DNA of 64,000 bases from Candidatus Woesearchaeota archaeon (GCA_016784165.1 JADHVD010000004.1:11624-75623), one strand, 5' to 3'; shown: positions 5,177 to 18,921, numbered from the stretch's first letter. Numbers and translations: made by a program. The notes: generated by a model not told the origin, from the letters alone.

Positions 5177-5728
5177 ATGAAAAAACAACAAAACAAAAAC
5201 AAGAGAGATTCCATATTTTCAAGAAAAAAAACCACTAAAAAAGCACAAATACAGGCACAAATATTTGTTTATGTTTTATCTATGATAGTGATTGGACTTG
5301 TATTACTCTATGGCTATAAAAGCATAGGCAAGATGAGAGAAAGAGCAAAACAAGTGGATTTAATTGGTTTTAAAACAGAAGTAAGAAATGCAGTAGAAAA
5401 AGTAAGCAATGATTATGGCACAGTTAGAGCGCCAGAATTTAAAGTTCCAGAAGGGTATGATGAAGTGTGCTTTATAGATTTAGACAAAGGGGCAGATCCA
5501 GGAATAGAGTCATTACACCCATTGGTTTATGAAGCATGGCAAGATGACAGTGCAAATGTTTTTCTAATAAAAGACTTAGCAAAAGAATTTTATTTAGTAG
5601 AATCAAATGGACAACATTTAATTCAAATAGATAGTCCAGGATATATTTGCCCAGAAGTAAAAGGATATAAAATAAAAATAAGATTAGAAGGTGTCGGAGG
5701 AAAAGCAAAACTATCCGAAATAGAATAA
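5177..5728 (+). CDS. Class III signal peptide (type IV pilin-like) protein
   Basis: ATG at 5177 preceded by aaggtga; the ORF-track start at 5168 is GTG. N-terminus ...RKKTTKKAQ|IQAQIFVYVLSMIVIGLVLLYG. Confidence 0.6.
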   Translation: MKKQQNKNKRDSIFSRKKTTKKAQIQAQIFVYVLSMIVIGLVLLYGYKSIGKMRERAKQVDLIGFKTEVRNAVEKVSNDYGTVRAPEFKVPEGYDEVCFIDLDKGADPGIESLHPLVYEAWQDDSANVFLIKDLAKEFYLVESNGQHLIQIDSPGYICPEVKGYKIKIRLEGVGGKAKLSEIE

Positions 5729-5776
5729 TCAAAATAAAGTAACCAAAATAAAATAATTAAAATAAATCAAAATAGG

Positions 5777-6850
5777 ATGAAAAAATCAAAAAAAGCAGCA
5801 ATTGAAGTATCATTTAATTGGATATTTGTATTAATAGCTGGGGGAGTAATACTTCTGTTTTTTATTAATTTAGTTGGCACCCAAAAAGAAAAGTCTCAGA
5901 TGAATATCGCACTGACAGTAAAAACAGAACTAAAATCTATTTTTACAGGGGCAACACTTTCACAAGCAAGACAGCTAGACATAGATATCCCAAAAACAAC
6001 CCTTAATTTTATTTGTGATTTTACTACCTGTACAGATTTTGAGGAATCAGATACGCCGAGCTGTTATTCTGAATATTCTATTGGGGAAACAGGAGTAAAT
6101 GAAAAAACACCTGCTCAGATAATATTCGCACCATCAGAACTATTTGGAAAAAAGATTCTCACCTGGACACTATCATGGAATGTTCCTTTTTATGTAACTA
6201 ATTTTTTATACATAACTGGCACAGATGTAAAATACATCTTTGTGGGTTCTTCAGATTCGGCAAATAATTTTTACAACAAATTCCCTGAAAAAACAAATAA
6301 ATATTTACGAACACCCAATTTAGCACCACAAGAAGAAGCTGATGGAAACCACAATTTCAAATTCATATTCTTTGATTCAGATCCAACAACATTTACTGTT
6401 TCAGACGAAATAATCTCCATAGCAAACCCTTCAAACATAAACGCAGTAAAGATAGATACCTCCTCAAAACAGATAAGTTTCTATTATTTTACAGATGACC
6501 ACACTTTTGAGCTAGAAGATTACATCCATTATCTAACAGAAGCAGAAGCATACGCAGCAATATTTTCAGACTCCTATAATTTTTATAAATGCAATCTTCA
6601 AAAAGCATTCAATAGATTACATTTAATCTCCACACTCCTTAAAGTAAGATCAGAAACACTCTACAATGATCCACAAACACCTAGCAGATGCAAAGGTACT
6701 TATGACATAAATAATAACGGCTTAACAACAATCGTAGAAAATTCAATAACTTTTTTTGATTCAAATATCTTACAGATAAGCAACTCAGCCCAGACATTGA
6801 GTATTTCAAACAGAGATACACAAGAAAAATCTTGTGCCTTGATATATTAA
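5777..6850 (+). CDS. Class III signal peptide (pilin-like) protein, 357 aa
   Basis: N-terminus MKKSKKAA|IEVSFNWIFVLIAGGVILLFFINLV. The rest is predicted extracellular and Cys-containing, with no known motif. Confidence 0.6.
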   Translation: MKKSKKAAIEVSFNWIFVLIAGGVILLFFINLVGTQKEKSQMNIALTVKTELKSIFTGATLSQARQLDIDIPKTTLNFICDFTTCTDFEESDTPSCYSEYSIGETGVNEKTPAQIIFAPSELFGKKILTWTLSWNVPFYVTNFLYITGTDVKYIFVGSSDSANNFYNKFPEKTNKYLRTPNLAPQEEADGNHNFKFIFFDSDPTTFTVSDEIISIANPSNINAVKIDTSSKQISFYYFTDDHTFELEDYIHYLTEAEAYAAIFSDSYNFYKCNLQKAFNRLHLISTLLKVRSETLYNDPQTPSRCKGTYDINNNGLTTIVENSITFFDSNILQISNSAQTLSISNRDTQEKSCALIY

Positions 6851-6907
6851 CCATAAAAAACAAAACAAAACAAAACAAATAATCCAGAAAAAGAAAAAAC
6901 AAAAACA

Positions 6908-16428: not shown

Positions 16429-16457
16429 TCAAATCAATAATTAAGATATTAGAAAAG

Positions 16458-18089
16458 ATGAAAAAAACAAACAAAACAATCAGTTCAAAAAAAGGATTCG
16501 TAGCAGAACCTTTAATAGATTTTTACGCTTTTGTAGTTTTTATACTTGTAGTACTAATCTTTTTTGTAATCTTCTCATTAATGAAAGGGTGCGACGGAAC
16601 ACCATCTTTAGATGATGTCCCTCATCAAAAATCAGATGTTGATTCTAATTATGTACTCACAACTTGGTTAAGAAAACCAGTGTTTCCGCAATCTCAGACC
16701 TCTACAATTAATTTAGTGATGAATGTAGATGGAGAAGTAGATAAATTCGCTGATGGAAACAAAACTAAAAAATTAAATTTTACAACACAAAAAGAATACA
16801 CAATAAAAATAACACTCCCATTCAACACAACAGCAACACAAGCAACACTCGATATCTCGTCAAATACTGGAAGCAACATTGCAGTATTGCTCGGAGGAGC
16901 CGATAAAATTACCCTTTACTTAAATGAGTACAACATTTTTCCAGAAGAGATAAGTAATTTTTCAGCTCTAAGAAGTGACCACGACGTATTTTTTGTTGGT
17001 TGTACAGATAATTACTTCAAATTAAGCAAAGATCCAGATATCAATTTAATTTTAAATTGGTTAAACAAATCAAATAAATTATTATTTACAACAGACTATG
17101 CAATAGAACTGTTAATGGCAATGTTCCCTGATAAATATATTTACACAAACCACACAGATATTCCATATCAGTATCTTCCCCACAAAATAAAATTCACCCA
17201 AAAAGGAACAAACAAATTTAAATTACCAGAAGCGAATATAAGTGGAATTTGGTGGTGGGACAAAATTGTTCAAGGTTATGAAAACCAAGTAAATATTCTT
17301 GCAGAATGGGAAACACTACCTTCTAAAGATTATGGACATCCAATCTATTCTTTCAAATATAATCAAAGTGAAATAATTCATTTTACAGCACATTTAGAGA
17401 TGAGTCGAAATTCTTTAGGTATAGATTTTATAAATAAATCTTTCAACATCACAGAATCACCGCCAGTAGAAAAACCCTCTTTAGATTTCAAAGATGATGG
17501 TATAATAGAATGGAATCATTCAGGAGAATACAACTCCCAAACAACAATAGATTTCTTAACTTTGCTCAATGACTACACTAAAAACAATTGCACATCCTTC
17601 CCTTGTACATTAAATCTAAAGGTCAAAGCAGATAACGGCACTTTAGTGTTAAAAAACCTAAAAATAATTTATGGAGAATATAAAGAAGAAGAGTTACCAA
17701 TAGAAGATTCCAATGACATGAATATTGCAGACTTAATTGCATTCAGCCAAACAGACGAAGAGTTAGAAGAACTAAGGGACGAAAACATAAACACTTTTTT
17801 CAACAATGCTTATCATGATTGGTGGCATTTAACAATAAATTACCCAGATGGAACAACAGAAAAATATGGCCATAGTTACACAGCAGATGTTATGCCTTTA
17901 ACAATTTTAGCGGGAACTATGGCCCTAGCACTCCCTCCAGGGTTAAATTATGTACATGCTTATTTAATCCTTCCAGAATCAGAAAAAATAAAAATCAATC
18001 AATCAATCCCCTCTTTAGATAAAGACCCCATAAACATTGAATTTTCAAAATGGGTAATTGTATATTTCCCCCATATCCCATTCATTTAA
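16458..18089 (+). CDS. Class III signal peptide (pilin-like) protein, large 543-aa ectodomain
   Basis: MKKTNKTISSKKG|FVAEPLIDFYAFVVFILVVLIFFVIFSL. Many N-x-S/T sequons. No known motif. Confidence 0.55.
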   Translation: MKKTNKTISSKKGFVAEPLIDFYAFVVFILVVLIFFVIFSLMKGCDGTPSLDDVPHQKSDVDSNYVLTTWLRKPVFPQSQTSTINLVMNVDGEVDKFADGNKTKKLNFTTQKEYTIKITLPFNTTATQATLDISSNTGSNIAVLLGGADKITLYLNEYNIFPEEISNFSALRSDHDVFFVGCTDNYFKLSKDPDINLILNWLNKSNKLLFTTDYAIELLMAMFPDKYIYTNHTDIPYQYLPHKIKFTQKGTNKFKLPEANISGIWWWDKIVQGYENQVNILAEWETLPSKDYGHPIYSFKYNQSEIIHFTAHLEMSRNSLGIDFINKSFNITESPPVEKPSLDFKDDGIIEWNHSGEYNSQTTIDFLTLLNDYTKNNCTSFPCTLNLKVKADNGTLVLKNLKIIYGEYKEEELPIEDSNDMNIADLIAFSQTDEELEELRDENINTFFNNAYHDWWHLTINYPDGTTEKYGHSYTADVMPLTILAGTMALALPPGLNYVHAYLILPESEKIKINQSIPSLDKDPINIEFSKWVIVYFPHIPFI

Positions 18090-18108
18090 TTCACCAAAAA
18101 ACAAAAAA

Positions 18109-18921
18109 ATGAAATCAAAAAAAGCAATGATATTCAACATATCTTTAGTAGTTATCACCATAGTTGTACTTACAACAGCATTCATTGCAATAAATAATAA
18201 GATAGAAAAAACAAAAAACCAAGAAAAAATAGGAACAAAACAATACAAATTAATCACAACATACCAAGAATTAGAAAAAGTACAATTCTATTTAGAACAA
18301 TCAATGAAATATGCAACACCAAGAATTATAGAAAGAATAAAAGATCAAGGAAACAATATCTGTCGTCCAAGTTATGAAGAAAATGTAGCAGAAATTCTAG
18401 AAAATGAGTTAAAAACATGGATAACAAGATATCCAGATAAAAATATAAACTTCCTCCTTTCAGATATCTATGAAATCTCAATAATAGACAACGGCCAAAC
18501 TTTAATAGCATCAGCTAAAAAAGACACCACAATCCAAATGCCTACCGGAAATTATTCAATAAAACCTTCATTCAGTGCCAAATTCAATCATCAAACACTT
18601 AATTGTACAGTACCGCAACCAATAACCTCTCAAACACCACTACCTAATACACCAAGATGTTATAATTTAGATTTTAGTATATCTCAAACTACAGTAAAAT
18701 ACCAATACAGCAGAACTGATAATTGTTGGAAGAGGAATGGGCACAAAGGATTTGGACTCTGGACTGGATGGGATTGCATAAATATAGATAACTCAGGATG
18801 GTTTGCTAATTATGCCCAAAAACACATCCTAATTGCTAATGAACTTCAAAACAAAGACGAAAGGCAAGGGATGTATTATTTACAAGATTATTATTCTACC
18901 CAAACAGTTTCATGTAATTGA
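18109..18921 (+). CDS. Class III signal peptide (pilin-like) protein; last gene of the array
   Basis: ATG at 18109. MKSKKAM|IFNISLVVITIVVLTTAFIAI. The ectodomain contains Cys. Confidence 0.55.
   Translation: MKSKKAMIFNISLVVITIVVLTTAFIAINNKIEKTKNQEKIGTKQYKLITTYQELEKVQFYLEQSMKYATPRIIERIKDQGNNICRPSYEENVAEILENELKTWITRYPDKNINFLLSDIYEISIIDNGQTLIASAKKDTTIQMPTGNYSIKPSFSAKFNHQTLNCTVPQPITSQTPLPNTPRCYNLDFSISQTTVKYQYSRTDNCWKRNGHKGFGLWTGWDCINIDNSGWFANYAQKHILIANELQNKDERQGMYYLQDYYSTQTVSCN

Follow-up and report, generated by a model that had tools for sequence, protein, structure and literature searches.

The genome of Candidatus Woesearchaeota archaeon (GCA_016784165.1) contains, within the 64,000-nucleotide stretch of contig JADHVD010000004.1 analysed here (11624-75623; hereafter the window, with positions counted from its first letter), an array of 18 consecutive plus-strand open reading frames (ORFs) that spans positions 5177-18921 and in which every protein begins with a prepilin-like N-terminus. 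It is this genome's copy of a conserved cluster that recurs across Woesearchaeota/Nanoarchaeota (DPANN) and has so far been found nowhere else. We favour, with modest confidence, the explanation that it encodes the subunit set of an Epd-like type IV filament, including modular pilins that target peptidoglycan, with the assembly machinery encoded elsewhere. A sequence-only reading of this DNA had proposed a large and diverse type IV filament-like apparatus; conservation of the N-terminal motif and structure models with a helix followed by a sheet speak for that proposal, but neither a pilin hidden Markov model nor a pilin structure is matched.

Prepilin-like N-termini in a co-directional array

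Each of the 18 proteins carries a short basic leader that ends in [KR][KR]-[A/G/S] and is followed by a hydrophobic helix of ~20 residues. This is the arrangement that the sequence-only reading had described, and all of the N-termini it quoted are present in the ORF listing, which places the start of the first ORF at 5168/5177. With a detector that requires [KR][GAS] within the first 32 residues and then a 16-residue stretch with a mean Kyte-Doolittle hydrophobicity of at least 2.3, 18/18 array ORFs are positive, compared with 5/55 other window ORFs of at least 45 amino acids (aa); of these five, a polytopic ABC-2 permease is probably a false positive. When the motif was counted earlier, 18/18 array ORFs and 3/46 others carried it (Fisher p = 3.7e-13). 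Hydropathy over 16 residues ranges from 2.5 to 3.8 across the array N-termini, and the class III leader pattern, [KR(DE)][G/A] directly before the hydrophobic domain, was found in 18/18. The motif is absent from the Sec-type signal peptides of the window proteins at 1832, 42851 and 44724.

The genes are as tightly packed as had been noted, with an overlapping junction at 10891/10885 and close junctions at 12913/12915 and 15845/15847 in the ORF listing; the widest intergenic gap within the array is 142 nt (8548-8691). Two further co-directional surface-protein genes, encoding proteins of 3207 aa (ending at 1771) and 1101 aa (1832-5137), precede the array with gaps of 39-60 nt, so the unit very likely begins outside 5177-18921. 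The bounds given by the sequence-only reading thus enclose 18 genes on one strand but not the full extent of the unit, which reaches upstream to these two genes.

The positions around the predicted cut are conserved where the rest of the leader is not. In alignments of orthologues of the array genes B, C and D, which share ~30-40% identity, earlier leader positions vary freely, and position -1 is A/G/S in 31/32 sequences of B, 35/35 of C and 34/34 of D, with K/R at -2. Position +1 is Q in all 35 orthologues of C and all 34 of D, and an invariant Glu lies at +6 in C and at +3 in D. Within the window, Q occupies +1 in 7/18 array proteins, the remaining members having A, F, M, L, I, G or T. We also examined composition independently of the motif, in 715 array ORFs with an N-terminal transmembrane helix from 82 loci. 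The residue after the last K/R is A in 33%, G in 31% and S in 13% of these (77% together), and the residue next after that is Q in 38%; in N-terminal-transmembrane ORFs outside the arrays, the residue after the last K/R is S in 18% and G in 9%. Ser at -1, found in 1/18 array proteins here and in 13% overall, is unusual relative to the known sites listed in PMC4371748.

Archaeal sites studied experimentally include RAQI, KGQV, KGQL and KGQI in Methanococcus Epd pilins and KAIS, KGIS and RALS in Sulfolobus, and the substrates of the peptidase EppA have a conserved, required +1 Gln and a frequent +5 Glu (PMC4371748). The motif mapped in the Epd pilins is [KR][AG]Q[IVLM], and the array sequences KKAQI, KKAQM, KKSQT, KKAQG and KRGQITHE fit the Epd/EppA sites closely. 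Because the mapped sites are cut after G/A, with Q left at +1 (PMC4371748), the cut in the array is expected before Q, and the bar that the sequence-only reading had drawn after Q is misplaced. In B (FNWIFVLIAG), C and D, conservation is highest in the N-terminal helix, and the relatedness between C and D found by hhalign is limited to the N-terminal segment, which together form a type IV pilin pattern. The conservation of -1, -2 and +1 at ~30-40% identity and the match to Epd sites uphold the earlier view of these N-termini as class III signals instead of chance K-rich anchors, and we regard class III processing of the array proteins as likely.

A conserved four-gene core and lineage-wide synteny

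Four strongly conserved genes open the array, all on the plus strand like the array genes described below. Gene A (183 aa; 5177-5728; ..KKA/QIQAQIFVYVL, with the slash marking the predicted cut) has homologues in 61 loci. It is followed by gene B (357 aa; 5777-6850; MKKSKKA/AIEVSFNWIFVLIAG), gene C (162 aa; 6908-7396; MKKNKKA/QMKMGETIAVL), which is present in 70 loci, and gene D (160 aa; 7404-7886; MRKTKKS/QTEILGLAI), present in 68. In close relatives, whose amidase protein (Z, below) is 77-82% identical, the array matches gene for gene. Identity of A-D between these relatives is 90-99% (93-98% for A), the level of RadA; the genes downstream of A-D share 42-88% and vary in length.

B-family relatives occur in at least 198 GTDB species genomes (genome-collection scan), and an exhaustive profile search places the family in 2199 clusters at 50% identity. 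The 41 homologues of B from a word-indexed search are all unannotated and come from Nanoarchaeota/Woesearchaeota. We surveyed 82 loci and their flanks (up to 10 kb) by our own ORF calling and BLAST. The recurrent order is a giant protein, a protein of ~1000-1300 aa, A, B, C and D, followed by between one and three proteins of ~90 aa, one of 40-58 aa, two paralogues of ~250-400 aa (in the window P1 at 8691-9791 and P2 at 9811-10689) and others; nearly all of these genes lie on the same strand and nearly all of them bear the motif. Runs of at least 10 motif ORFs were counted in 19/45 loci with at least 9 kb downstream, the longest comprising 17, and the array is immediately preceded by a giant ORF (900 aa or longer) in 54/61 assessable loci. 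Gene order is retained at 34% identity on a 277-kb contig. Conserved synteny across DPANN genomes, which the sequence-only reading had suggested looking for, is lineage-wide, with the same order in distant genomes.

About one-third of the cluster-bearing GTDB records (L015-L094) are titled 'uncultured Methanosarcinales archaeon', probably a placeholder taxonomy; the rest are Woesearchaeota/Nanoarchaeota. One B homologue (P0030; L020 10001-11098) has its N-terminal RKKAQMSIQFNWI tandemly repeated three times before a normal helix, which may reflect either an error of assembly or a true threefold signal. A viral or mobile origin of the array was rejected: the B family is absent from IMG/VR, the GC content of the array equals that of its flanks (~30% for the window), and the array lies beside RPA and RadA in close relatives.

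From the family alignments, AlphaFold predicts for B (pLDDT 91.5) a helix over residues 5-59 and then a beta-rich domain and a helical domain of unmatched fold. The model of D (pLDDT 84) has a helix over residues 6-58 and then an alpha/beta region with a 4-stranded antiparallel sheet. B and D are thus both predicted to have a long N-terminal helix followed by beta-sheet.

Murein-hydrolase modules on array proteins

Two array proteins carry wall-degrading domains, so that, of the enzymatic or adhesive ectodomains that had been proposed for the larger subunits, enzymatic ones are found in two members but adhesive ones are not demonstrated. The first, V (612 aa; 12915-14753), combines a class-III-like N-terminus with a lysozyme-like domain and a VanY/M15 LAS peptidase domain. 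We assigned VanY/M15 on a Pfam score above the gathering threshold together with the motifs SxYRS, HxxGxAxD and ExWH; V scores 29.9 bits against a cut-off of 25 and has all three motifs intact (SSYRS at 502, HLTGGAVD at 543, EVWH at 584), as do V-type orthologues in other species. The lysozyme-like segment (residues ~320-413), which contains FFRQES, is a weaker match (Glucosaminidase). A phmmer search of PDB sequences with V found nothing.

The second, Z (349 aa; 14796-15845; MKKRG/QITHE), joins a pilin-like module of ~150 aa to an Amidase_3 domain at residues 168-344, which scores 69.6 bits (cut-off 27). The N-terminal module stands alone in several species and is fused to Amidase_3 in others, and at the sequence level the Z family has a modular-pilin architecture. 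A word-indexed search with Z returned three close homologues only. The neighbouring protein Y (193 aa; 15847-16428; ..KGKKA/LFTFNMAY) has homologues in 9 loci, always beside Z.

When 136 large array proteins with the motif, taken from ~60 species, were surveyed with Pfam, VanY was matched 8 times, Peptidase_M15 6 times, Amidase_3 3 times, and M23 and 3D once each, with a few TPR and PKD matches; no enzyme class besides murein hydrolases was found among the 136. Most other array ectodomains match no family. VanY/M15, Amidase_3 and M23 enzymes cut murein-specific bonds, and no murein synthesis is known from archaea, so the likely substrate is the bacterial wall. Bacterial wall targeting by Woesearchaeota/Pacearchaeota has been proposed before, from giant lytic-transglycosylase proteins (PMC8204110; PMC9723730), and a survey of archaeal peptidoglycan hydrolases lists Sec and Tat signals only (PMC12352652).

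A proposed filament without linked machinery

In the model that we favour, a prepilin peptidase encoded elsewhere would strip the basic leader of 5-13 residues. With their hydrophobic helices bared in this way, the subunits could be drawn out of the membrane and assembled into a stack by an ATPase and a platform protein of the type IV filament kind, both likewise encoded elsewhere. Most of the filament would consist of the 47-aa and ~80-aa proteins, and A-D would form a minor-pilin core or priming complex. The fast-evolving larger proteins may be modular pilins that display functional domains, binding or cutting bacterial murein, and the two giant Sec-exported proteins may act as adhesins. The most likely use of such an apparatus is to bind and breach the bacterial cell walls of a host or prey, as suggested by the two murein-hydrolase domains here and by the fact that the sole enzymatic domains of the array proteins in other species are murein hydrolases.

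Pfam scans of the window, which covered the 30 largest other ORFs, returned no T2SSE/FlaI/PilB ATPase, no T2SSF/FlaJ/TadC platform and no Peptidase_A24, in agreement with the earlier observation that the window lacks these components. The only T2SSE-like match in the window is a protein encoded at 48510-50366 (plus strand) that combines PIN, KH and a PilT/T2SSE-like P-loop ATPase, which is not a pilus-type domain make-up. In the 82 loci (~1.5 Mb), regular expressions for a T2SSE-type Walker A and for a GxGD peptidase motif, and phmmer with the PilT-like ATPase core of the window, gave no match, and a census of transmembrane segments showed polytopic membrane proteins to be almost absent around the arrays. 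In these crude screens, no motor is linked to the subunit genes at any locus. Type IV filament systems (system 1, 4A and Aap-like) have been reported in DPANN/Nanoarchaeota (bioRxiv 10.64898/2026.04.22.720090), as have, elsewhere in the literature, nanoarchaeal ATPases whose cognate pilins remained unidentified, and both reports are compatible with machinery encoded elsewhere.

Several results weigh against the filament model. No ATPase, platform or A24 peptidase was detected within 10 kb in the 82 loci, by what are crude screens. At E <= 10, curated pilin and class III models matched neither the ten full-length proteins searched with NCBIfam nor the ten N-terminal fragments searched with Pfam, where only spurious transmembrane-like matches appeared, and the full array set at E <= 0.01 has no match to Class_IIIsignal/DUF361, Pilin_N or the NCBIfam archaeal flagellin/pilin models; we therefore assign the array to no curated pilin family. 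The pilin-like architecture that the sequence-only reading expected is borne out by the helix-then-sheet models of B and D, but Foldseek retrieves no pilin structure: against the PDB, the model of B has no match at E <= 0.001, and the top matches of D are to ribosomal uS3 with a TM-score of ~0.3. Searching PDB sequences with profiles of C and D gave only chance transmembrane matches. The motif is also not confined to the array, since a cyclophilin-type peptidyl-prolyl isomerase (35840-36460, plus strand; Pro_isomerase 1e-49) has a class-III-like N-terminus (..HKKS/IHLAVFIMALLVF), and it may serve this lineage more generally for anchoring or export. The extra C-terminal hydrophobic segments of P1 and P2 would hinder their extraction into a filament. 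Lastly, the first zinc-binding His of the Z amidase is replaced (LLDPGKDY versus canonical IDAGHGG); the remaining Glu, His and Glu are kept, the loss is common to two close orthologues, and the fused orthologue in L082 has the canonical GHGG.

The main alternative, which we rate as fairly unlikely, is a bindosome-like arrangement. Here the class III signals would be true and cut by a peptidase, but the proteins would stay anchored by their helices or build a short stub, with no extended pilus; together with the giant adhesins they would form a surface interaction zone, and the class III signal would serve as a general anchoring device for exported proteins. The motif on the cyclophilin and on three other unrelated window proteins, the assembly genes unlinked in 82/82 loci and the hydrophobic C-terminal segments of P1 and P2 all suit this arrangement, for which the class III sugar-binding proteins of Sulfolobus and thousands of predicted archaeal binding proteins provide a precedent (bioRxiv 10.64898/2026.04.22.720090). 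It would, however, leave the 47-aa and ~80-aa proteins, which are hardly more than a helix, with no obvious role except as filament subunits. The conservation of B, C and D peaks in the N-terminal helix, as expected for packing in a filament core. Neither the window array nor the 136 homologous-array proteins contain a substrate-binding-protein domain, and no link to an ABC transporter was seen.

A different function of the same apparatus, in which the hydrolases remodel the cell's own wall for its passage or scavenge peptidoglycan fragments as nutrients, appears less probable still. Bacterial type IV pilus and secretion loci often include a dedicated murein hydrolase for self-passage, and the Z amidase, short of one zinc ligand, may only bind glycan. 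Murein-specific enzymes of the VanY/M15, Amidase_3 and M23 types would nevertheless find no known substrate in an archaeal wall, the LAS motifs are intact across species, and targeting of the bacterial wall has already been inferred in published Woesearchaeota/Pacearchaeota genomics (PMC8204110; PMC9723730).

That the leaders are ordinary uncleaved type II signal anchors, Lys-rich through the positive-inside rule in a 30% GC genome, and the array a mere set of membrane-anchored surface proteins, is improbable: the genome is indeed AT-rich and Lys-rich, no pilin model or fold is matched and no peptidase was found near any array, yet anchors need neither the small -1 residue nor the Q at +1 that are near-invariant at 30-40% identity, the 77% of A/G/S after the last K/R is far above that in other N-terminal-transmembrane ORFs of the same genomes, Sec-type proteins of the same window lack the motif, and the motif, where Q follows, is that of experimentally cut Epd sites.

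If the Epd-like filament with murein-cutting enzymes exists, it would provide direct genomic evidence for episymbiosis or predation of an archaeon on bacteria, and would extend the concepts of modular pilins and functionalised type IV filaments to lytic enzymes. The V peptidase, the A-D core and the 47-aa subunit would then be testable targets. Woesearchaeota and their relatives are abundant, ultra-small and never grown, and their partners are unknown; the cluster takes up ~3% of a ~0.8-Mb genome (a size taken from related complete genomes), and its proteins are almost all unannotated. Four large 'hypothetical' families could become prepilin-like in annotation, of which B alone comprises ~2200 clusters at 50% identity. 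A bolder and more tentative proposal, which we think possible though somewhat doubtful, is that a dedicated 'attack pilus' is common to Woesearchaeota. Such a pilus would form a new type IV filament subtype with a conserved four-protein core and interchangeable pilin modules armed with murein hydrolases, its ~15-18 subunit genes kept together with the giant adhesins and apart from any motor. It would offer a molecular handle on the idea that the organisms these archaea live or prey on are bacteria and not other archaea.

Relation to known systems

Of the known systems, the Methanococcus Epd pilus (system 1) comes closest; the closest concepts are the class III binding proteins and the modular pilins of bacteria. 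The EppA-processed Epd pili of M. maripaludis (type IV filament system 1) have a processing motif of [KR][G/A] and then Q at +1, in many cases with an acidic residue shortly after, which matches those array members that have Q. Like the array, they draw on many different pilins per system, and their major pilin is hardly more than a helix. Some Epd pilin genes lie away from the machinery genes, and system 1 has been reported in DPANN. Unlike the Epd pilins, the array proteins match no DUF361/class III model. The 11-gene epd locus includes machinery, whereas the 18-gene array has no ATPase, platform or peptidase nearby (82 species), and the array is co-encoded with giant adhesins and bears murein-hydrolase modules on its subunits. 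For comparison, the whole M. maripaludis genome has 16 predicted class III proteins (PMC4371748), versus 18 genes in this array.

The class III binding proteins of the Sulfolobus bindosome resemble the array proteins in placing a large ectodomain behind a class III signal and helix, and their genes are likewise unlinked from an ATPase or platform. The array ectodomains are murein hydrolases or unmatched folds in place of solute-binding proteins, without ABC-transporter linkage, and the array has minimal pilins and a conserved quartet in addition. In the modular pilins PilB and PilC of Streptococcus sanguinis, as in the Z family with its bare and Amidase_3-fused forms, a pilin module precedes a C-terminal functional module; those pilins are bacterial, the array leaders lack the G/FxxxE N-methylation motif, and the array modules degrade walls instead of serving as vWA or lectin adhesins. 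The four adjacent conserved pilin-like genes beside candidate major subunits, one of them encoding a much larger protein (B, 357 aa), recall the minor-pilin priming complexes of the type II secretion system (GspH-I-J-K) and the type IVa pilus (FimU-PilV-W-X), an analogy only, since no sequence or fold homology is detectable.

The giant lytic transglycosylases and 'module 98' of Castelle et al. 2021 (PMC8204110) share with the array the lineage, the lineage-specific hypothetical surface proteins and the inferred target, bacterial murein. No pilin-like array and no class III signals are described there, and the hydrolases here are VanY/M15, Amidase_3 and lysozyme-like domains on small pilin-like carriers rather than on giant proteins. 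In that study, 51 lineage-specific families without a known function make up one module (PMC8204110), which probably includes the array families. Open-access papers and bioRxiv yielded no description of this cluster. It is set apart from known systems by the lack of family-level homology, a very long array made up of subunits only, constant linkage to giant adhesins, the absence of linked machinery, and its lytic modules.

Other members of the array and neighbouring genes

The remaining array proteins range from little more than a helix to large ectodomains. Small Cys-rich pilin-like proteins follow gene D: s1 (85 aa; 7961-8218; MDKKA/QGLSLNTIII) is paralogous to the proteins at 8252, 11861 and 12163 and has a near-identical N-terminus in the distant locus L014, and s2 (8252-8548), which is 98 aa as drawn, has its NKKA/QGLSLNVII at residue 23. 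Two further ones, s3 (89 aa; 11861-12130; MNKKA/LVSRTIV) and s4 (76 aa; 12163-12393; MNKKA/ITTKTII), lie beyond the P pair. The minimal pilin-like protein m (47 aa; 10748-10891; MKNKRG/FEFSFMAKLILIL..) is hardly more than a helix and falls in the size range of Flp/Epd pilins; motif-bearing ORFs of 40-58 aa recur at its position in most loci.

P1 (366 aa; MKNKRG/TSM..) has an ectodomain with conserved Cys and a Gly/Ala-rich hydrophobic C-terminal segment, and P2 (292 aa; MNKKA/MINKF..) is its paralogue. In the alignment of the P family (A7), 4-5 Cys are invariant, and the Gly/Ala-rich hydrophobic C-terminal insert is found in many, but not all, members. We rejected P1 and P2 as ApoL-like pore formers: the only ApoL match is sub-threshold (6e-5) and falls on the Gly-rich hydrophobic stretch, which is missing from many P-family members.

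Four larger class-III-like proteins complete the array. One of 310 aa (10885-11817), with an unmatched ectodomain, evolves fast (74-79% identity in close relatives). The 160-aa protein at 12431-12913 (MNKRG/FTTEGK) had no match in a Pfam scan and contains, as read from its sequence, Asp-rich stretches of the DxDxDG type. The 543-aa protein (16458-18089; ..SSKKG/FVAEPL), also with an unmatched ectodomain, is the fastest-evolving member, with 42% identity in L012 and truncation to 211 aa in L009. The last protein of the array (270 aa; 18109-18921; MKSKKA/MIFNISL) has an orthologue in L011 with a TSP3_bac match.

Upstream, the full gene of the giant surface protein, of which the window includes the part for the C-terminus (1-1771), lies at L006:317-9940 in the parent contig (76 kb, metagenomic; ENA ERZ24794647 NODE_2167; plus strand) and is the first gene of the conserved cluster; its product has a Sec-type signal peptide and Ig-like, CarboxypepD_reg, Glucodextran_B and Big_13 domains. 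The second upstream gene, also on the plus strand, encodes a Sec-exported, Cys-rich protein with TSP3-like repeats (a weak TSP3_bac match) and a C-terminal transmembrane segment followed by a K/Q/P-rich tail. Its orthologues, of ~940-1300 aa, occupy the same position in L014 and many further loci. A 72-aa ORF (L006:102-320) directly precedes the giant gene and overlaps its start; by eye only, it has the look of an AbrB/SpoVT-type regulator. In many distant relatives (loci L029, L033, L035, L048, L053, L063, L068 and L078), an additional class-III-like ORF of ~400 aa lies directly upstream of the giant ORF; it was not seen on the contig of the window.

Elsewhere in the window, three more class-III-like proteins with no family match are encoded at 54981-56973 (minus strand) and 59965-61626 (plus strand). 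They are of 412 aa (MNKRG/ISQVDW), 122 aa (MVKKA/NIRTLESF) and 553 aa (MNKKS/QITSF). The genes of the 412-aa and 122-aa proteins are adjacent, downstream of a 115-aa ORF, and may represent a second small pilin-like set. Archaeal markers in the window include RadA (21274-22284), RPA (19023-20285), PCNA, Cdc6 and SerRS. The region 24892-31338 (plus strand) encodes proteins with 7-8 transmembrane segments (one of them PMT_2-like), a GT2 glycosyltransferase and unassigned ORFs, and is probably a cluster for the glycosylation of surface proteins.

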